64,000 nucleotides of DNA from contig JAWOEX010000028.1 in assembly GCA_046482545.1 (NCBI GenBank), forward strand, positions 160,001-224,000. Direction: 5' to 3'. Below are positions 14,365 through 63,939 of the stretch, piece by piece. A model generated the notes under the pieces. It did no database searches. It was not told the DNA's origin and saw nothing but the letters and a program-made list of their open reading frames with translations. This stretch comes from Candidatus Thorarchaeota archaeon (GTDB taxonomy: Archaea > Asgardarchaeota > Thorarchaeia > Thorarchaeales > Thorarchaeaceae). Every line of letters begins with the position of its first letter. The stretch's first letter is position 1. The position numbers and the translations under genes are program-made.

Positions 14365-14705
14365 ATTGGGAACAGTAAAGTGAGATTCATAGGTTGTGTC
14401 AGCATGTTGCAATTGCGGCGGATGACCTTCCCTTTGTCTTAACTTGAATTTATACAGAGAGAGAAGCGGTAGAATATGGGGCGCATAGACGATAAATATG
14501 AACCAATTGTCTATTGCTTTATCAGATACTTTCAGAGTTCGTCAGTTTCTATAGATAGGCCCCATAGGCTGTAAGCTCAACAGACGTTATTGAACGGTCG
14601 GTAGCTGCAGCTATTGTTATGGGGTTTGGGATGCTAGGTCGATCAGTTCATGTCAAATCTTACACTCTGACATGCCGATTTGTTTTGGGTTTTGTAGGAT
14701 TTGCA

Positions 14706-45212: not shown

Positions 45213-48200
45213 CTAGCCTTCCCATTCCTCTGGTAATGATTCAATCACCGATTTGATCCGCCTACGAACTGCAACTGCCAGGATCCCGATGATTCCTAAG
45301 CCGCCACCCAGTGGAATCGCGCTTTCAGACATAGGTATGTTGATTGGTGGAGATTCTATCGAGAAGGGAATACTAATCGAAGCATTCTCAATAGCGGGAA
45401 GACCTCCCAAAGTGAGGTTGAGAACATGTTCACCAATCGTAGTTGGCGAAAATGTAACTTCAATGGAGGACATCCGAGAGGCAGACCCGTTAACGGTCTT
45501 CACCAAGTTGCCATCCGGTCCGTACAGCTCGCCCATCACCGTGAAGGCACTGTTTTCACGAGCGCCAGCAATCACGAGCGTGATATTGGCCTTGCATTCT
45601 GCTCCTACATAGGGTTCAGATAAACCACTCAAGGAAGCGCTTAGTTCGGGCAAAAGACTCACTTGACCTTCAACTGAACAAGGATTGTTAAGCTCCGAGC
45701 CACGATAGGAAACGACAACATCGTAGTTTCCGGCATATTCGAGATTGAACTGCGCTTTTGCTGTACCTACCCAGTCAGTCGCAATAGTTTGTTTAGCCAC
45801 CGTTTGGCTCCCGTATAGAATCTCGATGCGAATAGGGGCACCTCCGATTTTGTGATTCTCTCTAGTCAGTCGTACTGACAGTTTGAATTCCTCGTCGTAG
45901 TAGGCAGCCTCTGTGAGATCCACGAACGTGAGAGACGTAGCGTATCGAGAAAGAACCACAATCGAAAGTTCACAGGCTTGACGGAATTCTGTACCTGCAT
46001 ATGAAAAAGTAAGCGTGTAATTCCCAGCTATCCTAGGCGTCCAGTCTATCGTAGGTGGTCCTTCGGCTAAGTCTATGGTAGTGCTTGTTGAAAGGGAATT
46101 GCCGTATATTTCCTCTCCGTCGGGATTGTAAAGACTTACTCTGATAGTTCCGTCATTGATTGTCCCATTCAACGAATCAACCAGCACAATGGTCATACTG
46201 TGTTCTTCTTGAAGATTGCCGGATAACTGCTGGTTGGTCGGAACAATCCTAGTAACCGTAGTCACATCGAACTCGAATACGGTACTGTCTCCCAGTCTCA
46301 GCGATGTCTCTTCAAACATGGTATTGAGCTGATAGGAACCACAATGAAGGGCAAGCAAAGAAAGCCGGATGCTCGCATCTTCCAGTATCGTGCGGTTTTT
46401 CAAATCGACAAGCCCATTGGGACCTTGTAGCTCGTAGTAGAGACCTTCCAGATCAGATATTGCATCTGTTCTCTCGTCGAGTATTTGGATAGTAAGATTA
46501 GCATTGCTAGCCCTATCTGCTGTCATAGGACCGTCAATAGTAATCTTCGTCGTACCCCGCACAAAGACCACTATGGTAGTGCTACTAGGATGGTAGTGGT
46601 CGGTTCCTAGGAATTGGAAGATAATCGTGTGATTGCCTGCTCTCGTGAATGCAATGCTAACATTCTCTGGACGCTGACTATATTGCTCGATTTCATCGCT
46701 GAAAACAAGTCCTTCTTCCTCATGATACACGTTGTATGCAATATCACGCCCTTCGAGTGGTATACCTCCGGAATCAATAAGCAGCAGACTCAGGTTCAAT
46801 GGAGCCAATCCAGCAATGATATCGTTTTGATCAAGCAGCTCAACCTGAATCTCCGTTCCGTATCGAACATCCACTTCAACACTTGATTCCTTCTGAAGGT
46901 AGGCTCCGAGTCCGTCAAATCGTACAGACACCTGCCATAGCCCTTCTTCTTCCAAGATGCTGCTATGTTCAACATAGCCAGTAGAATTCGTAGTCAGAGT
47001 CACCTCATTCGAGATAGAGGGTGCATTGAGTTCTATGACGAGATTCATGTTAGCCAAAGCATGTCCTTGCTTATCGGTCAGCTTTGCCGAAAGATCCAGT
47101 GTATCACCGACTTCCAAGTCCTGCGAGCAATCAACACTCACAGAGGTACGGGAGTATATCATCAACATGGACTCGTTCTCGAATCCATATACCAGAGCCG
47201 ATCCTGCGAAAGATATGCTGAGGGTATGATATCCATGTTCCTCTGAAGTGAAGCTGAATCCCGCTATTCCTTCCGATACAGTAAGTGATAGTTGACCCAA
47301 CCAGCCCCCTAGATCGACTGTCTCTCCATATGGGTTTACAAGTTCAATTTCCAGATTGATAGCATCAATTGGAGTATCTAGCTCGTTATAGACACTAAGA
47401 GAGACGTTCGTCTGCTCATCTGAGACTGGGTTGGTTACATCTAAAGATACCTTGGCTTCTGTTTTGACAGTTAGCTGTTTCTGCGATTCACCACCGACCA
47501 AATACTGGTTGTCTTCGGGCCGCGCTCGAAGAATGATATTCCCACAGGCATCATCAGCCAAATAGGAAACAATCGCGATACCAGAATCGTTGGTATCGAT
47601 CTGGATTGTCCATAATGGAATCAGGTTCATGTCAAGGGCTTCGAAGACGACAGAAACACCACTTGTCTCTGTTTGGCCAGTGAGGTTGTACATAGCCTCA
47701 ACTGCAGCATACACATCACAGGAAGTTGTGTTGAGATGGAGCAAACCCCCAATTTCAGCCATAACAGAAATTGTACTGATAGTAGTATTCTCTAGGTAGT
47801 AATTGCCGCCTGCATGGACTAGGGTTAGAGTAGCAAGACCTCGTTGACCTGGTGTCCAGTGAACATGCTTGTAATCAGTCCCTGACAGCAAGTTCGCTTC
47901 AAAAACTACCTCGCCGTTCATCTCAATAGTGACAGTCAAACTCCGATTAGGAATGGCATCATCTAGTGCATCTAGGACTAACATACTCAACTGTGTATCT
48001 TGACTCACTAAACATGTCCAATCATGTTCAAGAACAAGAGTTGGAACAACCTGAACTCGCTGCACGAAATTATCTGTATCTGAAGCATTCAGCTGTGATC
48101 CTGTATATGTAGCGATGATTTGAAAGTCACCGACTTCATCAAACTGATAGGCGTAGACAAATTCGCCCTGTTCACCGGCAATAAGATTTGCACTACTAAT

Positions 48201-51200
48201 TTCTCCAATACCACTCTGGATTATGACGAGCTTGATCAGTTCTCCGACCAATGGTTCATCTGCCCAGTCAGAAAGGTCGCCCACGATGCCAAGCGTAGTT
48301 CCTTGACTGATTGGCATGCCGGAATTCTGCAGACTGAGCTGAGATATTCCAAATACCTGTGAATCAAGAGTGTCTGAACATTCTAGGAGATAATCTTGCT
48401 TGTCGGTACTAATTTCAATGGCAACAGTCCCAGGTTCATTGAGGTGCACTTCAAGCGCTATACTGCCTGTTTGAGATGTCGAATCTGTTGCATTCATGAT
48501 TTGCATGCCATTCAGGAAAACCATGACTTCGATTTCGATACCCTCCAGGTTTTGGTTATACGAATCAGACAGATGGACAGCAAACTGGTTGTTTAAGGGG
48601 GCAAGTGGATCCTCTAGCCAGTGAATATCTACTGTAATTTCATCAAACACCTCAACCGCCATGCTGGAGTTCGTGGCTTCATAAACACCTTGTCTAGCTG
48701 ATGAGGTTTCGATGGTGGATACACCTCTGATGTTTGGAGTCCATGTAAAACTGGCACTACCCGCGTTCGTTGTTGCACACCAGTCAATAGTTGTTCCATT
48801 AGGAAGGAGAATAACTGCCGATACTTCTAGACCATCCACCGGCTCAGAAAGATGGTTTTCGGCGTAAATTATCAGGCTGTATTCCTTTCCACAGAGCAGA
48901 CCATCAGGGAGGTCCATTGAAAGGGTAACAGGAATTCTCGCGGTTAAGTCAGCATCGCTAGAAGCATCCCCCCGCGAAATGCTTCCATCGAAACTGGCAT
49001 TGATGAGATAGTCACCCGCCGTACCAGGCCTCCATGTCAAAGAAACCATCGCAGATGAATTCGTCAGCAAATCATCTTGGTATACTATACTAGAAGGCAA
49101 GTAGGTGATTTCGATTGATACCACTTCGTTAACAAGTGGACTCGAATTTGAATCCTCTAGAAGGACAACAATCTGCAAATCATCAGTTACCAACACTGAG
49201 GAATGCGTTGGAGATAAGAAGGTAATATTGCTTGACGAGAAGGAGATGAAGCTTGATTGGGTATTAGATCCTTTCACGAAATCGGCTCCTTCGAAGATCG
49301 CTTTTACAGAATAGTTTCCATTCTCGTAGAGGCCAATTACTAGTGAAACATGACCAGTCGAATTCGTTTCGAGATTCCATTCTGAAACCTCATTTGAGGG
49401 AGAGAGTACCTCTACTGAAACCCAGAAGCCGCTTAGCGAAATACCCTCTTCTGAGATGAGTTGCGCAGTTAGAGTCGCTTCACCATACTGGTCATATTCA
49501 TCCTGAATGTGCCAATCTAACGAGCTCTCTTCATAGACCAGCATCTTCCCTTGGGTTTCGGTTCCCTCTATGCTTCCATTGTTCCGAGTACACAGATTAT
49601 ATGTGTAATTCCCGCGCTCGGTGGTAATCCACTCGAATGAGTTTCCAGATAGAGCAGAAATCATACTATCAGTGTGAACAGTAACATCGTTTGAATCCAG
49701 AATCTCCAAGGTTACGTTTTGGCCCTCAACGGGGGTTCCGTTGCAACTGAATGTCAGAGAGTAGTCTATGGTTACTGGCTCATTTATCCGAGCATCTAGG
49801 ATATCGGAAGATTCTAGATCTGTGGATATTGGTTCAATAACGGAGACCTCTTCTGTTAGAACGAGCTGTTCACAATACTTTCTTTCAAGAGTTACTGCCA
49901 GAGTGTAGTTGCCTTCTGAATAGTCCAAAGTTGATACTTCAAAATCAAACGGCGATACTCGGTTTGCATAGAATGATTCCTCATTGAACGTTGTATTGTG
50001 CAAAGAGACAGTACCATTCGTGTCCCCGGCATCAGATCCTGTTGAAAGCTCCCAACTGACTGTCCCGGATAAGATATAGCCCTGGAGAATCTCAGAAGAG
50101 CCAATATCAAGGAATCCAGCAAGCTCTCCACTCACAGTAACGGTTTCCACGGAGTAAGCTCGTACAGCAGCATAGTCTGTCACAGCTACAGTCACATCTA
50201 GAGGGCCTAATGATGATTTGTCGTTGGGTACCACTATGTAGATTACGTCATTTGAAGACACATTTTCAAAGGTAGTCCAACCATCGAAAGCGTTCACTTT
50301 GACAATGTGCTGTGTGAGATTCGAAGTAATGCTCAGATTGATTGCAAGCGACTCTCCGAGTGATGCAGTTTCGGCAATCGAAGTCACTAGCCTTGTTCCA
50401 GTCACATTGACTAGTCGAAGTCTGAGCCCAAGAGTTGAGACCAGCTCAAGCATGTCAGCTGTAAAGACGGGTTGCCAGAGTTCGCTACTATTGAACCAGC
50501 CTTCATCGAAAGAATCCTCAAGTTTGTCAAAAACAGCTGTCGTGTTGACTGAATCAAGATTAACATCAAAGGAGCTTGATTTGAGCAGAGCTAGGGTTGC
50601 AACATCATTACTCAGTGACCAGAAATCATCATATTGCAAACGAGTTTGGATTTCCGCTTCTATCTCGTCCGCCATGGTCGAGGTTATCAACCCAAGACGC
50701 AGGGCAGCTCTGGTTGATAGTAAATCCACAGCAGATTGTTGATTGCAGTATGGTCTAATTGTCCAGTCTTGGCTTGACCAAGAACCACTGTCGTATTCGG
50801 ATAATACCGCTGATTCTAATGCAGATCTGTACTGGATGAAGTCCAGATGATCAAGCTGGTAAAGCGCTTCAACTGCAGCTACGGAGTGTTGCATACTCGC
50901 CGTGAAAGAAGCAGCATACGAAGTCGGTTTGAAATGACCGCCGATGTACTGTGATAGGGTGACATAGTTGGTTGCTTGAGAGGCGACTTCACTCGGGATT
51001 GCACGACCTGCCGTCATGAATGCTTCAATTCCAAGCAGGTTGGCCCAGACACTTCGTATTCTGTATTGATCATAACCGTATTCGATAGAAGATCCAGCAG
51101 TCAGATTATTCCATGTTGGATACATGGCGAAGGCATCAAAGGTCAACAGGTACTCGGATAGTTTCGAACGGTTTATCGCAGAAATGTGTGAATAGCGTGA

Positions 51201-53006
51201 TGCACGGGTGAGGTAGCTACTCCACATCATGGTCGGCAGTGCTTCCATCACCTCGAATCCAAGAGGTGTTTCTATCTCTTCCAAATAATCGCGAATACCA
51301 CTGCTAATCAGCTCATCCTGCAATCCAAGAGTGTTGACACACAAAGCTACCGGCCAAGTCTCTTCTGTCTTTGCCATGATATCTGAATCCGAAAATCCCA
51401 GCCCGAAACCACCTGAAGGTAGTTGCTGCTCTTCAAGCCATGAAATTCCATTGGTCCGATTCTCTGGACTGAGCATTCCCAACCTATCCATGGTCGTTAG
51501 ACTAAACGCAGTACCTGCTGTAATCTCTGCGTCATTGCCCAAGGAGTTGTTATAGCTACCATCGCCATTCGAAGTTCTTGTCTGAATCCACTGTACAAGC
51601 ATTGCAGGTTCTTGGTATTCCTGTCCAAGAATCTCAAGCGATAGCACACAGGCAGCAGCATAGGAGTTGCGAGGTGTTGTCGCATCAGGACTGACTGCAA
51701 TACCACCCCAGCAGTCGGGATCCGAGGTTTCAGACCCTTTGATCTGGCATTCTCTCAGCCATTCTTCCAATGCTGTAGTATCAATTTGGCTGAGTTCACC
51801 AGAGGAAAGAAGTCCTTGAAGAACATGGTAGGTTGTGATAACGTCGTTGTCAAATCCACCATCGGTTTGTTGCCGCGACGAGAGATATTCCACCAATCCA
51901 GAGACGTTGAATTCTGTTGCCAACTGGAGTTCGGCAACTAGCCATAGCCCATGAGCCGTTGCCAGTTCGCCATGTTCCGTATACCTTGAGTCAGCAAAGG
52001 CATATTCATCGCCTAGATCGGCGTAGGTTTCAGCAAGAATTGAATGTACGAGGGCTACGTTCTGAGCAACCCATTGATTCCACTGAGAAGTGTTGCAGAT
52101 GTCTTTCGCTGAACGAGCTGTCCAGTAGGTTGAACTAACGGTCGCCTCATGGGGATACCAGAAACCTCCACGAAGAAATCCCTCAGTTTCCTGCTGAGCA
52201 GCAATTGCGTCCGCTGTAGAGCTCTCACCCAGAGACGACGCAAAGCAAACGATATTCTCTAAGAGATCTTCTCCTTCAGCGGTAAGTTCATCGATAGTTT
52301 CTGATGCAAAGAGAAACGAATCAAGCGGGTACGAATCATATCTCAGAAAAGGAACTGCAGAACTTGAGGCTGTCAGGTTCACTATCCTTGACTTGCTAGT
52401 TTGGACGCTGTCAAGAGGTGTATCCACAGCAGTGTTGGCCAGTGTTACTCCTGCTTCAATCTCGTTAGGATAAGAAAGGAAGACTGCCTCTGCATAATCT
52501 ACCGCTAGATGAAGAACAGTGTCTGATGCGGCGGTCTTCTTGGGTGTATCTGTTCTGCGTAGATGGTGCAACAACCATGCCGCTCTGCCCATCATAATGA
52601 CTGGAACATCAGAAGCAAGAAGAACACGAAACAACTGATCGCTAGCTGTAGATCCATTGTTAGAGCCTGTACTGGCATCTAAGATGATGACGCTTGCATT
52701 CAGGACAGGAGATGGTTGACTCACAAGTTCGCTGCTTGTCTTCGTCTCCACAGGTATGCCTTGCGTGGACAAGAAAGATGCAATATTCTCACGCGCAGAT
52801 GGTATGCTAGCCTCATCCATTCCAACAACTAACACATTGGCAATACCGCTCCCGATTTTCAGTTCACTAGGCAAATAGCCTTGATGTTGTTCCACAGGAG
52901 ATTCATCAGATGTAGTCTGAGACACAAACCCTATGTCCTGTTGGATAGTAGCAAATGGCAACAAAAGACACAGGCAGCACAATACAAGTAGTCGTCGTGA
53001 ATTCAA
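45213..53006 (-). CDS. Giant (2597 aa) cell-surface protein: prenyltransferase/squalene-cyclase-type alpha/alpha toroid repeats, long Ig-like stalk, C-terminal TM
   Basis: Signal peptide; QQTDGGF, NGDGSY, QQLPSGGFG repeats; more than a dozen Ig-like units (L.D....P, TNSTG, GNY...A.F.G); TM followed by RRR. Confidence 0.88.
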   Translation of the reverse strand: MNSRRLLVLCCLCLLLPFATIQQDIGFVSQTTSDESPVEQHQGYLPSELKIGSGIANVLVVGMDEASIPSARENIASFLSTQGIPVETKTSSELVSQPSPVLNASVIILDASTGSNNGSTASDQLFRVLLASDVPVIMMGRAAWLLHHLRRTDTPKKTAASDTVLHLAVDYAEAVFLSYPNEIEAGVTLANTAVDTPLDSVQTSKSRIVNLTASSSAVPFLRYDSYPLDSFLFASETIDELTAEGEDLLENIVCFASSLGESSTADAIAAQQETEGFLRGGFWYPHEATVSSTYWTARSAKDICNTSQWNQWVAQNVALVHSILAETYADLGDEYAFADSRYTEHGELATAHGLWLVAELQLATEFNVSGLVEYLSSRQQTDGGFDNDVITTYHVLQGLLSSGELSQIDTTALEEWLRECQIKGSETSDPDCWGGIAVSPDATTPRNSYAAACVLSLEILGQEYQEPAMLVQWIQTRTSNGDGSYNNSLGNDAEITAGTAFSLTTMDRLGMLSPENRTNGISWLEEQQLPSGGFGLGFSDSDIMAKTEETWPVALCVNTLGLQDELISSGIRDYLEEIETPLGFEVMEALPTMMWSSYLTRASRYSHISAINRSKLSEYLLTFDAFAMYPTWNNLTAGSSIEYGYDQYRIRSVWANLLGIEAFMTAGRAIPSEVASQATNYVTLSQYIGGHFKPTSYAASFTASMQHSVAAVEALYQLDHLDFIQYRSALESAVLSEYDSGSWSSQDWTIRPYCNQQSAVDLLSTRAALRLGLITSTMADEIEAEIQTRLQYDDFWSLSNDVATLALLKSSSFDVNLDSVNTTAVFDKLEDSFDEGWFNSSELWQPVFTADMLELVSTLGLRLRLVNVTGTRLVTSIAETASLGESLAINLSITSNLTQHIVKVNAFDGWTTFENVSSNDVIYIVVPNDKSSLGPLDVTVAVTDYAAVRAYSVETVTVSGELAGFLDIGSSEILQGYILSGTVSWELSTGSDAGDTNGTVSLHNTTFNEESFYANRVSPFDFEVSTLDYSEGNYTLAVTLERKYCEQLVLTEEVSVIEPISTDLESSDILDARINEPVTIDYSLTFSCNGTPVEGQNVTLEILDSNDVTVHTDSMISALSGNSFEWITTERGNYTYNLCTRNNGSIEGTETQGKMLVYEESSLDWHIQDEYDQYGEATLTAQLISEEGISLSGFWVSVEVLSPSNEVSEWNLETNSTGHVSLVIGLYENGNYSVKAIFEGADFVKGSNTQSSFISFSSSNITFLSPTHSSVLVTDDLQIVVLLEDSNSSPLVNEVVSIEITYLPSSIVYQDDLLTNSSAMVSLTWRPGTAGDYLINASFDGSISRGDASSDADLTARIPVTLSMDLPDGLLCGKEYSLIIYAENHLSEPVDGLEVSAVILLPNGTTIDWCATTNAGSASFTWTPNIRGVSTIETSSARQGVYEATNSSMAVEVFDEITVDIHWLEDPLAPLNNQFAVHLSDSYNQNLEGIEIEVMVFLNGMQIMNATDSTSQTGSIALEVHLNEPGTVAIEISTDKQDYLLECSDTLDSQVFGISQLSLQNSGMPISQGTTLGIVGDLSDWADEPLVGELIKLVIIQSGIGEISSANLIAGEQGEFVYAYQFDEVGDFQIIATYTGSQLNASDTDNFVQRVQVVPTLVLEHDWTCLVSQDTQLSMLVLDALDDAIPNRSLTVTIEMNGEVVFEANLLSGTDYKHVHWTPGQRGLATLTLVHAGGNYYLENTTISTISVMAEIGGLLHLNTTSCDVYAAVEAMYNLTGQTETSGVSVVFEALDMNLIPLWTIQIDTNDSGIAIVSYLADDACGNIILRARPEDNQYLVGGESQKQLTVKTEAKVSLDVTNPVSDEQTNVSLSVYNELDTPIDAINLEIELVNPYGETVDLGGWLGQLSLTVSEGIAGFSFTSEEHGYHTLSISFAGSALVYGFENESMLMIYSRTSVSVDCSQDLEVGDTLDLSAKLTDKQGHALANMNLVIELNAPSISNEVTLTTNSTGYVEHSSILEEEGLWQVSVRFDGLGAYLQKESSVEVDVRYGTEIQVELLDQNDIIAGLAPLNLSLLLIDSGGIPLEGRDIAYNVYHEEEGLVFSDEIEQYSQRPENVSIAFTRAGNHTIIFQFLGTDHYHPSSTTIVVFVRGTTKITIDGPMTADRASNANLTIQILDERTDAISDLEGLYYELQGPNGLVDLKNRTILEDASIRLSLLALHCGSYQLNTMFEETSLRLGDSTVFEFDVTTVTRIVPTNQQLSGNLQEEHSMTIVLVDSLNGTINDGTIRVSLYNPDGEEIYGNSLSTSTTIDLAEGPPTIDWTPRIAGNYTLTFSYAGTEFRQACELSIVVLSRYATSLTFVDLTEAAYYDEEFKLSVRLTRENHKIGGAPIRIEILYGSQTVAKQTIATDWVGTAKAQFNLEYAGNYDVVVSYRGSELNNPCSVEGQVSLLPELSASLSGLSEPYVGAECKANITLVIAGARENSAFTVMGELYGPDGNLVKTVNGSASRMSSIEVTFSPTTIGEHVLNLTLGGLPAIENASISIPFSIESPPINIPMSESAIPLGGGLGIIGILAVAVRRRIKSVIESLPEEWEG

Positions 53007-54421: not shown

Positions 54422-55393
54422 TCAGCATGTCTCTTCGAGTGTCGTCTGTTCTTGACCGTAGGTTTTCCAAGCCCGAGTGAGAGCCTTAATAGTCCTCTTA
54501 ACCGTTTCTCTCTTTTCAAGTGGAAGAAAATGCCGTTTCAGTTGATTCGGATTCGGGGGTCTCAGTGTGAGGTCAAACATGAATGAATCTATTCTGTCTG
54601 CTTCATAGAAAGTATCTCTCGCCAAGATAAATTCTTTAATCTGTGAGTGAGGAATACCGTTGGCGCGGAGTACATCTTCCAAGCTTCCGTATCGCTTCAA
54701 TTGTGTGGCACCCCTTCGAGGGCCTACATTTCGAAGTCCTTCATGAAAATCACAACCACACAGGATAGCCAAATCTCTCAAGCCCACCAAGTCCAAATCA
54801 AGCTCTTGTTTCAAATCGGATAATCTGGCAGAGGTAATCTTTCCTTTGGAAAAGCTGATGCCCTTGGTAAGATGTGGGGATCCAAAAAGAAGTGTGTCTA
54901 CATCATTGGATAACACAGACCCGGTTCGTCTAGCCCTTGCCAGTGCAGCTGCGGTCATCTCCGCTTCAGAGGATGCAGTAATGGTCGGAACTCCAGATGC
55001 CGCCAACAAATCCTTCAGATGAAAAGACATGAAATACATCGACAAGCTAGGACTTCCGGCAAGAGAAGACGAAATATGATGGTCGAAAGGATCTCTCTTC
55101 TCTAGAAAACGATTGTATAACCGGCGTGCGGAACGCAGAAGGTTGGGATTAGGTGCCCGCTTTAGGGATTCTGGAGGGCCATCAAAGATGAATACTGGTA
55201 GGATGTTATGTTGGAGTAAACCCTCAACCAGCTTGAGGGCAATAGACACGTATGGCATAGGCTTTCTTCCTGTCCCGCCCCGGGCGGCCAAGCGACGCAC
55301 AAAGTAATTTGGAACATCGATTGCTAGGGCTGAGGGCTCAATTTTAATGGCACTTGCAGTGTAGTGAACGAAATCCCAGCCAACTACTCCCAA
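54422..55393 (-). CDS. FEN1/XPG-family 5' structure-specific nuclease (divergent paralog)
   Basis: TTG start gives MGV; AID..NY, PVFIFDGPP..LK, SEAE, SNDVDTLLFG, H3TH ILCGCDF..GL..VGP; PIP-like QTTLE at the C-terminus. Confidence 0.88.
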   Translation of the reverse strand: MGVVGWDFVHYTASAIKIEPSALAIDVPNYFVRRLAARGGTGRKPMPYVSIALKLVEGLLQHNILPVFIFDGPPESLKRAPNPNLLRSARRLYNRFLEKRDPFDHHISSSLAGSPSLSMYFMSFHLKDLLAASGVPTITASSEAEMTAAALARARRTGSVLSNDVDTLLFGSPHLTKGISFSKGKITSARLSDLKQELDLDLVGLRDLAILCGCDFHEGLRNVGPRRGATQLKRYGSLEDVLRANGIPHSQIKEFILARDTFYEADRIDSFMFDLTLRPPNPNQLKRHFLPLEKRETVKRTIKALTRAWKTYGQEQTTLEETC

Positions 55394-56100
55394 GAATGAA
55401 ATCCCCCGTATATTGATTCTAATCCACACGGGCTCAAATAAACAACTACCGCTCGTTCGTTTTTGATAAGTGGTGAGAATTGCACCAAGATACGTATTGC
55501 AGAATCAGACACATCTAATTTCTCTATCCGAATCACGGAGTCTACTGCGTGAGCAAGTACATTACCTCCAACAGGTTTCCTTGCACCTTTTGATGAATAC
55601 GCTGTCATCATGAGATGCAGCCCGTGATTGTTGACCTGAGCACGGAGTTTTTCCAAAGAGCTGTAAAGCTTCCGCTGAGTCTTCTTGGTCATGGGCTTTC
55701 CGCTCAGATTCATCACTCCTGTAAGGCTATCAACAATCACAACACGGAAACCATGGGTTCCAGCATGTTCAACCGCTGCTTCCAAATCAGTAAGGGAAAA
55801 AACATTGCCAATTTGAATGTGTTCAAGGGGCCTGTCTGCTTCCATAGTCTCTCCAAACTTCCGCATGAGATTAGGTGAAAATCCAGATCCAGAATCCAAG
55901 TAAAGGGAACGATTATTTGCAACAACCCCTCCAAGAGCAGCGATGTGAGCCATCTCTGTGAGAAGCCCTCGTTCAGGGCCATGAAAAATGCTAATCTGGC
56001 GGTCAACAAACACTGGTCCCACTGTTGAGTCTAGTTGCTCAGGCTTGAGTTCGACCAGCCTATGAAAATCCATGTTAAACTCACTCAGCTGTTTGGCCAT
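55384..56100 (-). CDS. RecA/RadA-family paralog with degenerate Walker A
   Basis: ISIFHGPERGLLT (no GKT), LYLDSGSGFSP, VVIVDSLT, KPVGGNVLAHAVD (Rad51/RadA L2-side motif). Confidence 0.8.
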   Translation of the reverse strand: MAKQLSEFNMDFHRLVELKPEQLDSTVGPVFVDRQISIFHGPERGLLTEMAHIAALGGVVANNRSLYLDSGSGFSPNLMRKFGETMEADRPLEHIQIGNVFSLTDLEAAVEHAGTHGFRVVIVDSLTGVMNLSGKPMTKKTQRKLYSSLEKLRAQVNNHGLHLMMTAYSSKGARKPVGGNVLAHAVDSVIRIEKLDVSDSAIRILVQFSPLIKNERAVVVYLSPCGLESIYGGFHSWE

Positions 56101-57034
56101 CCGCGGTCACGCTCCGAATTATGACTGATACATCCTTTTCAAAAAGTAAAGTCTCTTCTGTGCCTGGTGGCAGGGATTCAAGGTCCATTCCCGGAACCTC
56201 GTTTTCCCGTACTATGACCCTTGGCCCATCCGAAGACGGTAAGATGGTCGTTCTTACCGGCGGGTCTGCCAGGATGCGTGAAAGAGTCGTGTGGTTTGTA
56301 GCGATACGAAAATCCTTTGGATCGATACCCGCAAGGCTTTCAAGGTAAGGCAGAGAGCCAATGAAGTGGCTGACTTCGGGGGATAGCTCAGTGAAATGGT
56401 CAACACCATAACTCCTAACGAGATTTTTGATTCGATTCGGCCAGCCTGCATCGTTTTCGCAGTTCACAATAATTGCGTCTGCCTCCTCGAATCGGACCAA
56501 ACAAACCGGCAATAGTGGTCGTTCCTCGATTAGAGTAATCATCGTCTGGAAATACCTGTGAGAAAGAAGAAACACCTGCCATACGCTACCGGACCTTACA
56601 GAATGATTATCCTCAATTCTTACCATAGTGTTGAGGACAGTACTGAATCCCCTTGACAATACTTTGGCACTTCTCTTTTGACGATGGGGATTTCGCACAG
56701 TGGTACATCCAATCAGGAAGAAGATAACTCCGAGTATAGAAACTAATCCATCAAAAATAAGCAAAGTAAAGCCGATTGCTAAAGCTGAATAGCCAGCCGC
56801 AAATCCGGCTACTGCAGTCACAACAGAACTCACTTTAGATTCAGATACGAAACGATGGTCAAGAACAAGTAATCCAAAGGCAAGGAGTACAAGGAAAAGG
56901 AGAGGAATGACATTCCCAGTTCTTGCGCTGAGTACTATAACGGTGAGAGATGCCAGCAATTTAGTGCCGAATAAAACAGCAACCATTATCACAATCAGCA
57001 GAATTCCTGCATTGCCTATCCACTTACCAATCAT
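56081..57034 (-). CDS. Membrane protein: about 4 N-terminal TM plus soluble domain, function unknown
   Basis: Hydrophobic first ~110 aa; overlaps both neighbours. Confidence 0.75.
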   Translation of the reverse strand: MIGKWIGNAGILLIVIMVAVLFGTKLLASLTVIVLSARTGNVIPLLFLVLLAFGLLVLDHRFVSESKVSSVVTAVAGFAAGYSALAIGFTLLIFDGLVSILGVIFFLIGCTTVRNPHRQKRSAKVLSRGFSTVLNTMVRIEDNHSVRSGSVWQVFLLSHRYFQTMITLIEERPLLPVCLVRFEEADAIIVNCENDAGWPNRIKNLVRSYGVDHFTELSPEVSHFIGSLPYLESLAGIDPKDFRIATNHTTLSRILADPPVRTTILPSSDGPRVIVRENEVPGMDLESLPPGTEETLLFEKDVSVIIRSVTADGQTAE

Positions 57035-57660
57035 TGTGTTCCTCCCCCAAGGGCCAATGCAACTGATCCTTCATCTTCAAGCCGAATTTCAATCAAAGGA
57101 GTAGATTCTACTTCAGCAATTGATATGCCGGATTTTATGGTTCGAGCAATCTTGATTTCGTAATCAGCGAATCTATTCATTGCTTCCTCATACACAGCCC
57201 TTTTCGAACCACCGACTTCTCTACACTCGCTGATACAGAGAATCGTCAAATCGTGTTTCATTGACATAGCTGTTAGACTCGGTAACACCTCTTCGAAGAG
57301 TACTCTTCCCCACATAGGGTCTTTTCGAAGTCCCATATCCAAGACACGAGTAATCGAATCAATGACAATAAGGGTTGTATCTTCAGTGAGAAATGTGGGG
57401 ATATCTTCGATAATCTCTACCGTCATTTTATGGCCCATAGCACTAAGGACCCTAACTGATTCAGGCCTTCCGTTTGTCCGGGATATGGTCTGCTTCAAAG
57501 GCTCGATGAAAGCCATCTTACCATTTGTGTTAATCCACAATACATCAGAGTCCATAGCCACCTCCGAAGCATAAGCTATGGCAAAGAGAGTCTTTCCCGT
57601 TGCAGGAGCTCCGGAAACATGGACTAGTCCCTTTAGTCCAAAGTCGCAAGGCTTGTTCAT
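57031..57660 (-). CDS. RadB-like RecA/Rad51 paralog (intact P-loop)
   Basis: G.....V.GAPATGKT, VLWINT, LIVIDSI, ILCISE; core-only length of 209 aa. Confidence 0.82.
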   Translation of the reverse strand: MNKPCDFGLKGLVHVSGAPATGKTLFAIAYASEVAMDSDVLWINTNGKMAFIEPLKQTISRTNGRPESVRVLSAMGHKMTVEIIEDIPTFLTEDTTLIVIDSITRVLDMGLRKDPMWGRVLFEEVLPSLTAMSMKHDLTILCISECREVGGSKRAVYEEAMNRFADYEIKIARTIKSGISIAEVESTPLIEIRLEDEGSVALALGGGTQ

Positions 57661-59201
57661 AAGGAGTCTTCCTCATCCTCTGATGGTTTGCTTTCTAGTG
57701 GAGACCCCTTTAGTTTTGAATCAGCAATCTGGCGTCCTGTAAGCTCCAATTCATCTTTGCTGGAGTCAGTATTTCCCTCTACTTCATCCCCGCTTTCGGA
57801 AATACCGGCTGAGCCTATTCGTTGGTATAATCCATCATTACACTTGTCCGGTTCAGGTATTTCGTCGGGTATTTCAGATTCTATTTCTTGCTTCAGAAAT
57901 GCTGCAGTGCCAAGCAGGTTTATGGAATCATATATCCTCTGCAAGAGATTATTGTCGATGAGGCCGGCTCGTGAGACGGCTCTGTATAGAGTTCCAATAT
58001 AATCAATCAGGGAGTCTCGATCTTCTGAAGGGTATGCACCAAGACCGGCATAAGAAATTGCTAATTCATCGAAATCACTCTCTGAAAGCCCGGCCTCAAG
58101 TTCCTCGAATAGGCCTAGGAAGGTGGCTAGACCATCATCAGGTATCGATGCGCGCTTGGTTGACGAGTTTTTCGCGCACTTCTCAATTATGATACTACTG
58201 GCCTCAGCGGCCTCCTCAATTTTCGCATTTTCTATTGCATCAACTACTCTGGATACGAGTGGAGATATTACGAAATTGATGTCCTCGATTTTCTTGAAGA
58301 TATCTGCCTTCTTGCACAGTTGCTGTTGTGTGAGGGCGCGATCTCCAATTTCAGCCAGCTTGCCTTCTTCTTCAGCCAGCTTATCCTTGAAACAGAAAAT
58401 ATTCTTTCTTGCCTTAAGACCAGTCCACATTGCAAAACCAACAGAAAAGGCAGCCAGTACCACGGAAATAATCCATCCGATTCCTCCAACAAGAGAGCTG
58501 TACACCGCGCTTACTACGCCTACAAGACCAACTAGGATCGCCAAGAAAGCAAACCACCCATTTGTAATTCCCTTTTCCAGAGACTCCCATTTCTCCGGTA
58601 TCATCGCAGCCCTAATATCAGGTGCTGTTCCCATCGCATCTGATCTTCGAGACAGACTGAAGTCTTGAAGATTCAACACCCTTTTTGGTTCACAGAACCA
58701 AGAGTAGGAGTTCTTGTCTACTGTCTCCGAAGTAACGACATAGTTCATTCTCGACTGTCTAACCAAGCTATGCTTCTCGGGTGATGAAGAAGACTGCAGC
58801 ACATCGAATTCGATTTTTCCGAAAGGAGTCATGATGCACTTCGATTCTAGTTTTTCGTCGAGTTCAAGGTCCTCAAATACTTCATTCAGTTCTCTGTCCG
58901 CTGCTTTTAGAACGGTTTTCTGCATACCCATCTTTGGAAGGTCACAGGAATTGAGATCCAAGATATTTGTCAAAGAAACATGTACACTTCTTGTATTGGG
59001 TATCCTATCAAAGCGTACTCCAACAACAAGTCCTTTTTCAGGATAGGCCTTTGCCACATGCTCGTTTTCTCTCAGAAGATCGAGTATGCTTTCTATCTGC
59101 GATTCTTTCTTGTCTTCCTCTTTCTCAGTTATAGTATCCCCTTTTCGAGATGGCTGTGTTGATCTTTGATCACTACTTGCTGACATCTTTATCACCTGCA
59201 T
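57657..59201 (-). CDS. Membrane protein with central 2-TM hairpin and helical C-terminal domain, function unknown
   Basis: Two adjacent TM helices mid-protein; probable start ATG 59186 after GGTGA; overlaps both neighbours. Confidence 0.78.
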   Translation of the reverse strand: MQVIKMSASSDQRSTQPSRKGDTITEKEEDKKESQIESILDLLRENEHVAKAYPEKGLVVGVRFDRIPNTRSVHVSLTNILDLNSCDLPKMGMQKTVLKAADRELNEVFEDLELDEKLESKCIMTPFGKIEFDVLQSSSSPEKHSLVRQSRMNYVVTSETVDKNSYSWFCEPKRVLNLQDFSLSRRSDAMGTAPDIRAAMIPEKWESLEKGITNGWFAFLAILVGLVGVVSAVYSSLVGGIGWIISVVLAAFSVGFAMWTGLKARKNIFCFKDKLAEEEGKLAEIGDRALTQQQLCKKADIFKKIEDINFVISPLVSRVVDAIENAKIEEAAEASSIIIEKCAKNSSTKRASIPDDGLATFLGLFEELEAGLSESDFDELAISYAGLGAYPSEDRDSLIDYIGTLYRAVSRAGLIDNNLLQRIYDSINLLGTAAFLKQEIESEIPDEIPEPDKCNDGLYQRIGSAGISESGDEVEGNTDSSKDELELTGRQIADSKLKGSPLESKPSEDEEDSL

Positions 59202-61356
59202 TGTATCGATTTGAATGCAACTCGTTGAGCAATCTATGAACTCCCCTTCCTACTTTATCCAAGTTGGAAACCTCTGCAATGCTGGAGATTGAGATAAGAA
59301 TCCACTCCAGCATATCAAGGATTAATCTGATGTCACCTGTACCCAGATTATTTCTAGTGGCTATAGTCTCACAGTTCTCAGAAGCCAGAATGAGTTCAGC
59401 AACAATCTGTGCCGTTGACTCACCAAGGTTTCTGCCACTTTCCAGCATGATGATATGCGCGATTAAATCAAGCAATTCCCTTGAAGTATCTACCATTGGA
59501 AGGAGGGCCAAGATTTCTCTGACTGTTGATATATGGAGATAGAGCTTGCAAACAACGCTGCCGAGAGCTGTGAGTCTCAGCCGGGCATCAGAGCCACCTT
59601 CAATCAAACCGAGCTTGGTCAGAGTTGCTACTGGGCTTGTTTCTCCTAATGCTAGGGGAATTATGAAATCGGCTTTGGACCGCAATGATTTCGCTGCTTC
59701 GATTCCCAGAGCAACAAGATGGGGGCAGAGGATGCCATCTTGCCCAATGGCTTTGCCGCACGAACACGACGGGCCTTCAAGAACACCGCTCTTCCGTGAT
59801 CTGATGGAGAACCGACATGTGTACCCTCCTCCGCTCCGTGGTTTAACCAGACCCCCTATCGTCTCCTCCGATTTCTCGCGGATATCAACGTGAGCAAGGA
59901 CCCCTTCCATTGCGGCGTGGAGGGTTTCAGACAGCGCATGTTGTTCAATCGACGCCTGTGCGGTGAGATCGGCTAGAATCAGCGGTCTAACTGGTGAACG
60001 TGGATTCCTTACGTGATTATGTACGAGATATGATTGGGCAAAATATACGTCTTCAAGGTCTAAAACCGTAGAGCCATCAAGAAAATCGATTGCCACTAGA
60101 ACCTGCTCTGTAAGATTGCTTGAAAGACTGCTTCGCACAGAACTGAATCTAGGCATCATTTCGTCCTCGCCTTCAGAAGCATCAATACACTGGAAGTACG
60201 CGTCTAAAGCTGTTTTTCGCTCTCCCTCACTTCGAGTAATGATGATTCCAAAGCCTTCCTTGTCGAACCCTGGCCTTCCTGCTCTTCCCAACATCTGGTG
60301 AACTTCATTAGCTGAAAGAATCTGTTTGTAATCAGCAGGAGAGACGATGGATGAAAGAACCACTGTACGTGCAGGAAGGTTCATTCCCGAAGCAAGAGTT
60401 GTCGTAGCTGAAATCGCTTTCAGGAATCCTTTCTTGAAGAGCCGTTCAACAAGACTCCGAGATTGAAAGTCTAACCCGGCATGATGATATGCTACACCTT
60501 GATGGACGAGAGGAACTAATTCACTTGGTAGGGACGCATTCCAGTTCTCAACCGAATCGAGCTCGGTGTCAAGATTATCTTTCTCCACATGACGCAGCTG
60601 TCTGACCACGTGTGGTGCCAGTCTCTTAGCTGATGCCACTGCTTCTCGCCTTGTTCTGCTGAATACCACAACCTGGCCGTTCCTTTGTACGCTTCGCATA
60701 ACAATATCCCGAACCGTCTTCTCTGGCTCATTGGTCTTCAGAACTCTCGTTACCAACGGAACTGGTCGATGACTAGATTGTAGAAGTTTGGAATCCAACC
60801 ATTCTGCCAGTATTTTTGGCTGACCAATTGTAGCACTGAGAACGACGAACTGAACTTCAGGGAATGCTTTTCGTAACCGCATCAGAGTTCCTTCAAGCCT
60901 GCCTCCTCGCATTGGGTCTGAAATGTTCTGGATTTCATCCACGATTACAGTGCCTATATCTGAAAGCCAGTCAGCCCTGTGGCGTAGTAGCGAATCAGTC
61001 CTCTCATAGGTTGAGACGAGTACATCGCAAGTTGCGAACTTGCTTCCGCTGGCTTCAAGATCCGAAGTACTTACTTCCACATTCAAACCACGATGAGAAT
61101 ATCGTTCCCTGATGGTTGATCCAATTTGAATAGCCAGCGATTTCAGTGGAACCATGAAGACAGCCTTTCGTCCATTTGAGACCGCCCTCAGAGCGGCCAT
61201 CTCACCAATGAGGGTCTTCCCAGAACCCGTGGGACTACATATCATCATGTTAGCCCCGTCGAGCAATCCCTCATCTATGGCCTTTTGTTGCAGTTTCCTA
61301 GGTTCTAATCCTGCCTCGCGAATCCAATCCAAAACCGATTGCTGGACTAAGGTCAT
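59173..61356 (-). CDS. Ski2-like/Hel308-type SF2 helicase with inserted SWIM zinc finger
   Basis: Q motif LQQKAI, PTGSGKT, DEIQ, LSAT, HHAGL, TTTLASGMNLPA, QMLGRAGRPGFD; CSC...CPH inside the winged-helix region. Confidence 0.9.
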   Translation of the reverse strand: MTLVQQSVLDWIREAGLEPRKLQQKAIDEGLLDGANMMICSPTGSGKTLIGEMAALRAVSNGRKAVFMVPLKSLAIQIGSTIRERYSHRGLNVEVSTSDLEASGSKFATCDVLVSTYERTDSLLRHRADWLSDIGTVIVDEIQNISDPMRGGRLEGTLMRLRKAFPEVQFVVLSATIGQPKILAEWLDSKLLQSSHRPVPLVTRVLKTNEPEKTVRDIVMRSVQRNGQVVVFSRTRREAVASAKRLAPHVVRQLRHVEKDNLDTELDSVENWNASLPSELVPLVHQGVAYHHAGLDFQSRSLVERLFKKGFLKAISATTTLASGMNLPARTVVLSSIVSPADYKQILSANEVHQMLGRAGRPGFDKEGFGIIITRSEGERKTALDAYFQCIDASEGEDEMMPRFSSVRSSLSSNLTEQVLVAIDFLDGSTVLDLEDVYFAQSYLVHNHVRNPRSPVRPLILADLTAQASIEQHALSETLHAAMEGVLAHVDIREKSEETIGGLVKPRSGGGYTCRFSIRSRKSGVLEGPSCSCGKAIGQDGILCPHLVALGIEAAKSLRSKADFIIPLALGETSPVATLTKLGLIEGGSDARLRLTALGSVVCKLYLHISTVREILALLPMVDTSRELLDLIAHIIMLESGRNLGESTAQIVAELILASENCETIATRNNLGTGDIRLILDMLEWILISISSIAEVSNLDKVGRGVHRLLNELHSNRYNAGDKDVSK

Positions 61357-63674
61357 TGCGCTGCTGCCGCCTCCTCAAACTGCCTGAGCGCCATTCGGCC
61401 TTTCAGCGTCAAGCGATAGTTTCCGTAATCTACCCCACTGTGGGTTTCATGCCCCTTCAGTATGAGGCTCGCTCTCTCCAATCGGAAAAGAATTTGTGTC
61501 ATGTCAGCTGTTGATAGGCCCTCTCGGGTAAGGAAACTCTGAAGTGCTTTTTCAGTCAGCGGAGAATACCTATTAAGAAGCTCAAGAATTCGTAGTGCTA
61601 TTTCCTTATTGTCTCTACAAGCATGGGCCAAAAGGCTGCTTGCTTTCGGTTCTGGTTTCTCGTAACTCTGCAGAGTCTTTAGTCTACTACGAATGTCGTT
61701 CTCCGTAAGATCCTGTAAAACAGGAGCATCACACAATCTTATCGGATAAGATAGCTCTTCTGCTCTATGCGAAAGGATAGCCATATCCGACCCAAGTGTT
61801 CGGATAAAGGAGGTTTCTCTACTGGATCTGCGGGATTTACTGTGAATGCCGTGTCCAACAACGGTTAGCTTGAGTATATCATTGGCAACAGCAATGTCAC
61901 GCGAATCTCTGAGACGTAAACAGATTGAGCTTCCAAGCTGGTTCAGTACTTCATTGTCCAGACTTGAGGGGTTCTCTACTGAAATGATTAGACTACCACG
62001 TCTAAGAAGATCTCCTACGATGTCACGTGCCCATTCCGAGTTATCAGGATAGCGATTCCCACTCGCTAAAAGGTTAGCAGGTGTGTCTAGTATAACGACG
62101 AATTCTCTGCTGGGTCCAAGCGCGCTGAGTTTGATTAATGACAAATCCCAAGCGAAGATATCAAGCTCAGGGCTCCCCAGTTCGATATGAGCTACTGTCA
62201 GTGTATTCTTCGCAAGCGAATTCATTGGTACAGTCTGTTGGCCATAGAAGGCTCGTGCCCCAACACCATCGCGCAGAAGGCGTATAACTTCTATACCGCG
62301 CAAGGAATCTCTTGAGGGATCGGTGGAATACTTCTGTGAAGAAGCCCCTTCTTCCGCTACAACTGGAGTATCATCTGTCAGAGAAACGTCAGCCAGAGTA
62401 GCATTGGGCACGGACACTGCTCGCTGTAATGCTAGCTCAAAGTCAGTAGCAGCACCAAACGGACGACCGTTCAGAATTTCGAGTGCTTTTTTCAGCTTTG
62501 AGACATATCGCAAGGAGTTCATACCATCGGCAGCAACAGGGTTTAGAATCAAATCATCTGCAAGCTGAAGAGGAATGGCCGAGTCATGAAGGCTGGCTAG
62601 TCTCATGGCATTTTCATTTGCACTAAGGACTATCACATGCTTACCTGATTCCAGAATTGAATGGATTAGATTCGCGAGAATTGGAATTCTTTCATTTCTA
62701 TGCCCTCCACAGATGAGAAGGCCATCCTCGAGGTCCTCTTGGGCTAAACCCACTGATGGACCCTCCAACATTGTTTCAGGATTGATGCTTCGTCCAACTT
62801 CGAAGTCGTACTGCTGACCGCGTATCGGGCTGACAAATTCTCCAGGAATCGTTGCGCCCACTTCTGATGCTAGTTCACTCTTCAGCTGTATTAGCCACTT
62901 GGTCAATTCACTACCTAGAGCGTAGAAACAAGGGTCCCGATTAGCGAAAGAACGATTCAAAATTAAAGCTGTGAGTTGTTGAACTGATAGTCGTTCCCAT
63001 CCTTTGCTTGGTAGCGCCCCCCGAATGCCACTTTCAAAAGCACCTTGCCCTTTTTGATTTCGCAAGTGGGCAGCAATAGAGACAGAAACTTTCCAGAAAC
63101 CAGCTTGATTGAGTAGGAAAGATTCCAATCCTTCCTCGCTTATTGAATCAACTAACCATCGGGAGGTGTCATCTAGCAAATCTTGGCTGTAAAGGATAGA
63201 GGAATCACTTTTCTTAAGAGAAATTATGAGACAAAAACCTAAGCCTATGGGAAGAGCCCGTATTAGTCGTCCAAGATCCCCCAAGAACTCAGCTGGCGCA
63301 TCTTCTAGGGATAACGCCATCATGTACTGGCCGTTTTTGGTTTCTATCAGTTCTCTGTCGGAGCCACTGATAGAACCGATTCCATTATCCTGCTGCCATT
63401 CTGGTACGAGTTGTTCAGAAGACCGGGAAGTCAGAGAGGGCGCTCCTATCAACAATAGTAGGACTGCAACGCTGAGGATACCAACTACTTTAGGAATGTA
63501 AAAAACAGCCCAAAAGGCAAGGGCTGAAACGAGCAGAGAGGAAAGCCAAGACGAGGCTAACTCCCGAGTCCTCCACCGAGGCTTTGTACTCTTCGATACT
63601 GACCAACGAGATTCCTTCATTTCGTCCATAGGGTCTCGCTGGGGAATTGACCCGAAGATATGACGGTCAGTCAG
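61353..63674 (-). CDS. Membrane-anchored HerA/VirB4/CedB-like pseudo-ATPase with C-terminal winged helix
   Basis: N-terminal 2 TM; GLLICGGHRNER (Walker A position), LNPV, VVILDTPANL (Walker B position), LIISVENPSSLDNEVLNQLGSSICLRL..D; wHTH ending YRLTLKG. ORF-track start is ATG 63629; in-frame CTG 63674 with GGAGG is proposed. Confidence 0.7.
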   Translation of the reverse strand: MTDRHIFGSIPQRDPMDEMKESRWSVSKSTKPRWRTRELASSWLSSLLVSALAFWAVFYIPKVVGILSVAVLLLLIGAPSLTSRSSEQLVPEWQQDNGIGSISGSDRELIETKNGQYMMALSLEDAPAEFLGDLGRLIRALPIGLGFCLIISLKKSDSSILYSQDLLDDTSRWLVDSISEEGLESFLLNQAGFWKVSVSIAAHLRNQKGQGAFESGIRGALPSKGWERLSVQQLTALILNRSFANRDPCFYALGSELTKWLIQLKSELASEVGATIPGEFVSPIRGQQYDFEVGRSINPETMLEGPSVGLAQEDLEDGLLICGGHRNERIPILANLIHSILESGKHVIVLSANENAMRLASLHDSAIPLQLADDLILNPVAADGMNSLRYVSKLKKALEILNGRPFGAATDFELALQRAVSVPNATLADVSLTDDTPVVAEEGASSQKYSTDPSRDSLRGIEVIRLLRDGVGARAFYGQQTVPMNSLAKNTLTVAHIELGSPELDIFAWDLSLIKLSALGPSREFVVILDTPANLLASGNRYPDNSEWARDIVGDLLRRGSLIISVENPSSLDNEVLNQLGSSICLRLRDSRDIAVANDILKLTVVGHGIHSKSRRSSRETSFIRTLGSDMAILSHRAEELSYPIRLCDAPVLQDLTENDIRSRLKTLQSYEKPEPKASSLLAHACRDNKEIALRILELLNRYSPLTEKALQSFLTREGLSTADMTQILFRLERASLILKGHETHSGVDYGNYRLTLKGRMALRQFEEAAAAQ

Positions 63675-63939
63675 GGGTCTCGCCTCCCGATTTCAATTCT
63701 TGCAGGGCTGTAAGCATCTGTTTGACTAGACTCGAAGATTCGTATGCAACGGCCAACTTTCTCCCGAGTACCAGTAATTCTGGAAGTCCCTCCTTCCGCG
63801 AAACACCCACCTCAGTCCGCCTTGGTGATTCAACCAAAAGGGTGAATTCGTAAGCATGACCACCACGTAGTGCTTTCTTGACCTCATCTACGGCAAGACC
63901 AAGCGGAATGGTGATGGAATCCATGTACTCGATCTTCAT
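63667..63939 (-). CDS. Small hypothetical protein (90 aa), operon member
   Basis: GGGGG RBS-like; ATGA overlap with the upstream ORF. Confidence 0.65.
   Translation of the reverse strand: MKIEYMDSITIPLGLAVDEVKKALRGGHAYEFTLLVESPRRTEVGVSRKEGLPELLVLGRKLAVAYESSSLVKQMLTALQELKSGGETPD

Follow-up and report, generated by a model that had tools for sequence, protein, structure and literature searches.

Near the end of a 64,000-nucleotide stretch of a Candidatus Thorarchaeota genome (hereafter the window, G000:C9:160001-224000), an open reading frame (ORF) of 773 codons plus stop on the minus strand (61353..63674) very probably encodes an ATP-dead VirB4-like protein that is under selection. VirB4 is the ATPase that characterizes conjugation, type IV secretion and the archaeal Ced/Ted DNA importers. 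Judged by its modelled fold, the product of this ORF (the target) is a VirB4-type member of the HerA/FtsK superfamily, and it fails every catalytic-motif criterion. The fold and the superfamily are known, while the domain architecture, the family-wide loss of catalysis, the lineage and the genomic partnership are new. The dead VirB4 lineage is spread over Asgard archaea, with a Hel308-type helicase adjoining or near at every locus read. A full-text literature search found no description of the family nor of any ATP-dead VirB4 lineage, and we know of no described case of such a lineage that is family-wide and maintained by selection.

Fold and catalytic motifs of the P-loop domain

A sequence-only reading of the window had described a long, intact ORF for a HerA/VirB4-like protein, and the frame at 61353-63674 is indeed open and translates as noted (all parts of the target given below lie on the minus strand). 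The curated models are silent about it. The Pfam scan assigned no family even at an expectation value (E) ≤ 1, including PF03135 (CagE_TrbE_VirB), PF12846 (AAA_10) and PF19044; the NCBIfam scan gave no relevant match and a single-sequence phmmer search against the PDB gave none. The DUF87 (HerA) model does not match the target either, and the true HerA-like genes of the genome score up to 1e-30 with it. Therefore, the motif reading was tested by relatives and by fold.

The AlphaFold2 model, built from an 11-sequence alignment, has a mean predicted local distance difference test (pLDDT) score of 70, rising to about 90 over the core residues 300-600. When the full model was run with Foldseek against the PDB, the top matches were TrwK/VirB4 of plasmid R388 and Sulfolobus HerA (E about 5e-12). 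By VIA, the VirB4/HerA-type P-loop (RecA-like) C-terminal domain (residues 281-654, 61713..62834) has the VirB4 C-domain (4ag5_A) as the best of all its PDB matches, with a Z of 28.8 and a root-mean-square deviation of 2.9 Å over 326 of 374 residues, followed by DndH-C (Z 24.8), HerA 4d2i (Z 24.4), TrwB (Z ~21) and FtsK (Z 16.5). The P-loop fold, for which a check had been proposed, is thus detected by both approaches. The placement as HerA/VirB4-like stands at the level of the superfamily, but HerA is not equally close, VirB4 being the closest fold. Moreover, full-length TrwK was aligned by VIA over 480 residues (model 95-663 to TrwK 204-802), so that the N-terminal domain also follows VirB4. 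Both domains of VirB4/TrwK (4ag5, 7o42, 7o43, 8rtd) are therefore matched by the target, and the first ~217 TrwK residues have no counterpart in it.

With HerA, as found in HerA-NurA, Sir2-HerA and DUF4297-HerA, the target has the P-loop core in common, and HerA chains are its only sequence-level link to solved structures: the sequence profile reaches three HerA entries over the Walker B, sensor and 'RL..D' strands, although weakly (best E 0.025). It differs from HerA in having an N-domain that matches the one of VirB4 and in the loss of the catalytic motifs. A complex prediction for two copies of the C-domain (residues 281-660, 39-row alignment) scored 0.00, which is no answer and speaks neither for nor against a ring.

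The motif spacing of the HerA/VirB4 type is also recovered. The pre-P-loop pattern 'vG...G..V.L...L..G.LI' is followed by CGGHRNER at residues 322-329, LNP at 377-379, VVILDTP at 526-532 and LRLRDSRD at 586-593. The motif columns were taken from a hidden Markov model (HMM) alignment to canonical fringe relatives carrying GTTGSGKTT. In the degenerate Walker A (C322-G-G-H-R-N-E-R329-I330, 62685..62711), G323 falls on the first Gly, E328 on Gly6, R329 on the Lys and I330 on the Thr position, so the changes are Gly6→Glu, Lys→Arg and Thr→Ile and the motif is dead, as had been claimed. The same applies to Walker B (VVILD530-T531-P, 62079..62099), where D530/T531 stand at the acidic pair and LDTP is without the catalytic Glu; orthologues keep the Asp and have T, S, G, E, D or N at position 531. 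In the sensor strand (SLIISVE567-N568-P569, 61968..61994), the canonical Gln is lost, but the residue replacing it is Glu567 and not the Asn that had been proposed, Asn568 being the next residue; the position is variable among orthologues. In comparison with VirB4, the target is without the Walker A Lys/Thr, the Walker B Glu, the sensor Gln and a Pfam VirB4 match.

What remains of the motif is strongly conserved. C322-G323-G324-x4-R329 is invariant in 11 aligned orthologues from Thorarchaeota, down to 35% identity, and in a 39-sequence superfamily alignment G323, R329, N378 and K515 are nearly invariant. It is therefore necessary to consider that the pocket was re-purposed, with the Cys-Gly-Gly...Arg loop, together with N378, K515 and R615, binding a nucleotide or phosphate ligand without hydrolysis, and the protein acting as a switch or regulator of the enzymes of its operon. 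Besides the conservation, this would agree with the loop from the first Gly to the Arg being as long as a canonical Walker A, with the C-domain having the lowest ratio of non-synonymous to synonymous substitution rates (dN/dS, 0.15), and with the frequent retention of nucleotide binding in other P-loop proteins after mutation of the Walker A Lys to Arg. However, the second Gly position holds an acidic or polar residue (E328) and the Mg-binding Ser/Thr position a hydrophobic one, and neither the Walker B Glu nor the sensor Gln is conserved, a combination of losses that as a rule blocks productive Mg-ATP binding. We consider a switch of this kind unlikely, although it ranks first among the alternatives.

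Family, selection and gene start

A word-indexed search retrieved ten relatives of 758-787 amino acids (aa), 35-96% identical to the target over the full length, for which 'Candidatus Thorarchaeota' is the only source name. A profile search of 1.84 billion protein representatives (50% clustering) yielded 150 proteins, of which 86 have an E ≤ 1e-10. Three subfamilies can be told apart by length and by the remnant of Walker A: the first from Thorarchaeota, with about 775 aa and CGGxxxxR, the second with 810-850 aa and GGTxEQRFxTN, and the third with about 1,260 aa and NGTxxSRE. All profile matches of 350 aa or more were included in the motif alignment to the profile. Of the representatives long enough to be aligned at the site, nearly all are without GK[ST], about 140 Asgard relatives in total, and almost all have Arg at the Lys position. 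The exceptions are three fringe matches (P0117, P0146 and P0147, E 6e-8 to 1e-4) with GTTGSGKTT, Walker B EE and the sensor Gln, which are ordinary DUF87/HerA proteins. The few members with a source name are all from Thor-, Loki- or Promethearchaeota, the distant groups being from Loki- and Promethearchaeota.

The loss of three catalytic motifs could also mean that the gene is a decaying pseudogene of an active HerA/VirB4 gene, and the presence of CTG at the orthologous start position in this strain would fit with it. An intact GxxxxGKT in close orthologues had been named as the sign of such decay; the orthologues all keep C-G-G-x4-R instead. The 773-codon frame is intact here and so is the frame of every full-length orthologue. 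The target gene differs from that of a 96%-identical strain by 49 synonymous and 36 non-synonymous changes, and the dN/dS check that had been suggested gave 0.23 over the full gene and 0.15 over the P-loop domain, the lowest of all parts of the target. For comparison, the neighbouring Hel308-like helicase gene has a dN/dS of 0.19 in the same pair. A usable ratio was obtained only from this pair: against same-genus orthologues (73%) dN is 0.19 with dS saturated, as it also is at deeper distances. Since the degenerate motif is invariant in orthologues, the dN/dS is low and the family is shared Asgard-wide, the sequence comparison indicates that the gene is under selection and not decaying. The pseudogene explanation is refuted by the orthologues, and we give it practically no weight.

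The start of the gene requires a separate consideration. The codon at 63674 is CTG, and not ATG, GTG or TTG, whereas the first ATG is found at 63629 and would give a protein of 758 aa. Upstream, the in-frame stop is a TGA at 63695-63693, with no usual start between it and the ATG at 63629, and a GGAGG box is located 8 nt 5' of the CTG. Orthologues at 72-73% identity have a Met at exactly the CTG position (MTDRHVFGSLPQRDP...). Among the extra 15 N-terminal residues, G8, P11, D14 and P15 hardly vary across the family, and E18 does not vary at all. Because the orthologues have their Met there and the extra residues hold family-conserved positions, the long form is the ancestral protein. In the 96%-identical strain, the start-equivalent codon is likewise CTG. 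In both strains, initiation is thus either at the CTG or at Met16, and the codon represents either a rare CTG initiation or else a recently shortened N-terminus. The stop of an upstream 90-aa ORF overlaps the CTG start region, and the stop of the target overlaps the start of the Hel308-like gene (ATGA).

Within the phylum, the family is present in 86 of 301 genomes, and within the source's own GTDB family in 52 of 76, in single copy wherever the gene is whole. Five Thorarchaeota genomes were examined for operon loss, four of them without a target match. In one (G112), the operon runs off the contig end; in two others (G055 and G131), neither the target nor the partner was found; and at least two of the five have a partial operon beside an assembly gap or rearrangement. 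As some absences are due to assembly gaps or rearrangements, the 52 of 76 is not read as true patchiness, and since the absence counts are partly assembly artefacts, the gene is left unclassified as accessory or core. Another of the five, a one-contig Thorarchaeota genome (G242, locus L036, G242:C1:1480001-1500000), has the back half of the operon and no target was found in it. There, the ORF at 11497-14424 is an unrelated FAD_binding_2 enzyme (residues 1-322) fused to the C-terminal half of a Hel308-like helicase, a chimera that marks the breakpoint of a rearrangement or deletion, unless the contig is misassembled.

Membrane hairpin, N-domain and winged-helix tail

The target begins with a tail (residues 1-42, 63549..63674), placed on the cytoplasmic side, which contains a conserved G-S-x-P-x-x-D-P-x-E-E motif and a basic stretch of five Lys/Arg with one acidic residue. 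It is followed by a transmembrane (TM) helical hairpin (residues ~43-83, 63426..63548), in which the two TM segments of the sequence-only reading are found as hydrophobic helices at residues ~44-60 and ~63-83, joined by a loop of four residues. Given the basic stretch before the helices and the short loop between them, the hairpin is predicted to be N-in/C-in, with the remaining protein cytoplasmic. A TM hairpin is common to all subfamilies of the dead VirB4-like family, and in the subfamily of ~1,260 aa the hairpin-plus-N-domain modules occur as a tandem pair. In P0079 and some 40 further representatives of ~1,230-1,340 aa (e.g., L039:9404-13189), the TM segments are at 62-91 and 273-315 and the P-loop remnant is NGTxxSRE, and at the L039 locus a Hel308-like helicase is located about 4 kb away. 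In type IV secretion, VirB3 is bound or fused to VirB4. The membrane-attaching N-terminal hairpin of the target recalls this arrangement, a likeness for which we claim no homology.

The 'TKNG.Y' region, which had been likened to VirB3-VirB4 fusions, does form a separate domain (residues 98-280, 62835..63383), with the VirB4 N-domain as its best PDB match. The domain was modelled alone from residues 96-290 (pLDDT 81) and used in a scan of 48,161 PDB representatives, independent of Foldseek, in which TrwK/VirB4 218-425 ranks first (Z 7.9, 166 residues aligned; the next chain has 5.4). In Foldseek, TrwK makes up 12 of the 15 best rows for the isolated domain, with a best E of 7e-3. As to an N-terminal HAS-barrel of the HerA type, no HerA chain is among the listed matches of either search, although absence from a list is not exclusion. 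On the modelled structure, we regard the match to VirB4 as moderate in strength, yet specific and in the right place.

Two further stretches stand out for their conservation, and both have low confidence in the model. The inter-domain motif W-L-x-Q-L-x-S-E-L-x-x-E-V-G-x-x-x-P-G-E-F-x-x-P-I-R (residues 256-285, 62820..62909) bridges the N- and C-domains and is the most conserved linear motif of the family. The other is a basic loop in the C-domain, G-x-H-S-K613-x-R615-x-S-x-R619-E620...R625 (61800..61850), where R615 is invariant across the 39-sequence alignment.

The C-terminal tail (residues ~680-773, 61356..61637) had been described as a winged helix-turn-helix (wHTH) and proves to be of the PadR/MarR type by the order of its model elements, by pattern and by profile matches. 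The elements are H690-703, H708-717, H725-734, E738-745, E748-755 and H757-772, and the tail carries the PadR pattern L-x-R-L-E...Y-x-L-T-x-K-G. In a profile search of the PDB, the tail matches the PadR-like 3l7w (E 0.0016) and, at lower rank, many PadR and MarR chains. Among family members, PadR models match in 5 of 18 and HTH_34 in 3 of 18 (best E 2.5e-6), and MarR matches are found as well.

Such a tail raises the question of whether the target is a membrane-tethered transcription regulator, in which the PadR-type domain would bind an operator of the operon and the VirB4-like body would sense or sequester, and so release or activate the tail. Few parts of the protein are as well conserved as the tail, with L697 and G759 being two of the five invariant residues of the 39-sequence alignment, and its fit to the PadR pattern is accompanied by PadR and HTH_34 matches in distant members. 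Nevertheless, a conserved VirB4-like body of about 650 residues would be unusual for a sensor, the gene lies mid-operon and is translationally coupled to structural and enzymatic genes, and the operon already encodes a separate wHTH protein of 145 aa upstream. Regulation as the function of the target is, in our view, improbable. If the target were only a regulator, its combination of TM hairpin, VirB4 N-domain, dead VirB4 C-domain and PadR-type wHTH would still be a new architecture.

Operon context and possible role

The target lies within a long co-directional row of genes on the minus strand, which was followed in the window and through a further 20 kb upstream. In order of the row, it contains two ORFs without assigned family (268 and 149 aa), RadA with helix-hairpin-helix (HhH) (344 aa, L002:4517-5551), the 145-aa wHTH protein, an ORF without assigned family (204 aa), an XPD-like helicase (660 aa), a two-TM protein (203 aa), the 90-aa protein (63667..63939), the target, the Hel308-like superfamily 2 (SF2) helicase (727 aa, 59173..61356), a membrane protein (514 aa), a KaiC/RadB-like P-loop protein (209 aa, 57031-57660), a four-TM protein (317 aa), a Rad51-like protein (238 aa, 55384-56100) and a FEN1/XPG-like nuclease (335 aa). 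In the Hel308-like helicase, both GSGKT and DEIQ are intact, and an internal Cys/His stretch (residues 526-550) weakly matches a SWIM zinc finger (Pfam E 0.048, below cut-off). A RadA-like gene of 242 aa (L002:8280-9008, minus strand), not counted in the row, is found farther upstream beyond a Yip1-domain ORF. Four RecA/RadA-family genes, namely the full RadA with HhH, the KaiC/RadB-like one and two weaker Rad51-like ones, are located within about 17 kb.

This organization is well preserved. The order 203-aa TM protein, 90-aa protein, target and Hel308 is kept in all 11 further Thorarchaeota genomes and on two more contigs, one of the 96%-identical strain and one with a target of 37% identity; the 90-aa protein was detected in place at nine of the 12 other Thorarchaeota loci checked and is below detection in three. 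On the contig with the 37%-identical target, the full RadA...XPD...target...Hel308...FEN1 order is retained. A Hel308-like helicase is also encoded within 10 kb of the family member in each of three distant Asgard lineages, accompanied in two of them by an XPG/FEN1 gene. Family-wide, identity is about 50% for the helicase and about 36% for the target, the helicase being the more slowly evolving of the two.

It had been suggested that the target could be inactive itself and paired with an active paralogue from an upstream gene. No HerA/VirB4/FtsK-type match was found in the 20 kb upstream nor in the scanned operon ORFs downstream. The family profile run against the genome finds only the target itself, and PF03135 and PF01580 have no significant match in the whole genome. 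PF01935 identifies four canonical DUF87 genes, two on contig C28 and one each on C10 and C26, and no such gene near the operon. The proposed partnership is thus unsupported, as the canonical DUF87 genes are on other contigs. Among the operon proteins, the 203-aa and 317-aa membrane proteins were considered as paralogues and rejected, hhalign against the family profile showing no relationship; an 815-aa neighbour at the Lokiarchaeota locus and an 812-aa ORF of G242 proved to be unrelated as well.

As the degenerate motif is invariant, the dN/dS is 0.15-0.23 and the loss is family-wide across Asgard, a non-catalytic role is the natural reading. The most likely such role, which we infer at odds that are even or slightly below, is that of a membrane scaffold or DNA dock. 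VirB4 has two functions in type IV secretion, as motor and as cytoplasmic base of the inner-membrane complex (cf. PDB titles 7o41, 8rtb), and because the hydrolysis motifs are lost, only the base function can remain. The target, very probably a catalytically inactive descendant of the VirB4 branch of the HerA/FtsK ATPases with its body kept at the cytoplasmic face of the membrane by the hairpin, would have lost its motor function and would act as a platform fixed in the membrane, which may be an oligomeric ring like those of VirB4 and HerA. The winged helix and the basic HSKxRxSxRE loop would hold DNA or a partner, and the platform would hold the co-encoded Hel308-SWIM and XPD helicases, RadA, the three RecA-type paralogues and the FEN1-like nuclease. 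The energy for DNA movement or unwinding would come from the intact helicases and RecA-type ATPases, and the module would act on DNA at the membrane, which could for example be DNA taken up or exchanged before its recombination. In its widest form, the proposal is of an undescribed Asgard membrane machine that couples DNA exchange or uptake to homologous recombination, with an ATP-dead VirB4 hub and SF2-helicase and RecA-family motors, which we hold to be doubtful.

Several observations weigh against the scaffold proposal. The pocket residues C322, G323, G324, R329 and N378 are invariant or nearly so, a conservation which, judged from the alignments, exceeds the need of a purely structural remnant and suggests that a ligand site may have been retained. 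Among the 76 genomes of the source's own GTDB family, 24 gave no match to the dead VirB4-like family. Archaeal and eukaryotic wHTH domains often bind proteins rather than DNA. In addition, no Pfam match to a VirB6/CedA-like channel, a VirB2/CedA1-like pilin, VirB8 or a coupling protein was obtained among the scanned operon proteins, a search by Pfam and not by fold; with no channel or pilin found by Pfam, a transport function would be without its channel. Finally, the scaffold role, the DNA binding and the ring formation are all things that we infer.

The same neighbourhood could be read as an anti-virus or anti-plasmid defence system, where the VirB4/HerA-like body would be a platform for nucleases and helicases as in Sir2-HerA and DUF4297-HerA. 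Searches by sequence and by fold both match HerA chains of defence complexes (8ziq, 9c1m, 8j4u, 8wld), the presence appears patchy within genera, and the operon encodes helicases and a nuclease. However, HerA in the solved defence complexes keeps an active ATPase, and the partners here, RadA with HhH, RecA paralogues and FEN1, are not typical effectors. A gene order that is stable to about 35% identity, with a single-copy gene, also fits vertical inheritance better than a shuffled island. Defence therefore appears to us as a minor possibility of low probability.

For the scaffold proposal, a precedent is found in the archaeal Ced/Ted DNA importers, which use a VirB4/HerA-like ATPase (CedB/TedB) thought to power DNA import, and of which the Ted loci carry Rad50 and HerA genes (PMC9905601). 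Like the target, CedB/TedB are archaeal, of the VirB4/HerA type and encoded at a chromosomal, non-plasmid locus tied to repair or exchange (PMC9905601, PMC11868833), and the module described here would be a functional analogue of Ced/Ted. The language-model look-alikes of the target include a 'DNA import protein CedB' cluster (score 0.91), which we take as a lead only. CedB, however, is described as the import motor, whereas the target, by its motifs, cannot be one; the fusion of hairpin and wHTH in the target is unlike Ced/Ted, and the host is from Asgard and not from Thermoproteota. Relative to VirB4 itself, the target has the extra C-terminal wHTH, an archaeal host and recombination genes as neighbours.

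Loss of catalysis in members of ATPase assemblies has precedents in the degenerate FtsK-like domains of EccC (type VII secretion) and in Rad51 paralogues without Walker A. The likeness is that the P-loop fold is kept under selection after the loss of the hydrolysis motifs, presumably for assembly or regulation; the difference is that in those cases an active paralogous domain is part of the same complex, and none is encoded in the operon of the target. If the target is the membrane hub of its operon, it would offer a testable handle on DNA exchange or repair at the membrane in the closest archaeal relatives of eukaryotes, and it would be a clean case of a motor protein turned scaffold.

Two minor observations concern the surroundings of these loci. 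On a Lokiarchaeota contig, a LAGLIDADG-like protein (L024:5346-6638) is encoded two genes past the distant dead VirB4-like gene, and the same 14-kb stretch holds XPG/FEN1 and Hel308-like genes. In the window, downstream of the operon and past ORFs of 206 and 200 aa, a 2,597-aa alpha-2-macroglobulin-like protein is encoded (45213-53006, minus strand), with Big_1 and Big_3_5 immunoglobulin (Ig)-like domains, MG2/MG4 macroglobulin domains and a prenyltransferase-type alpha-alpha toroid.

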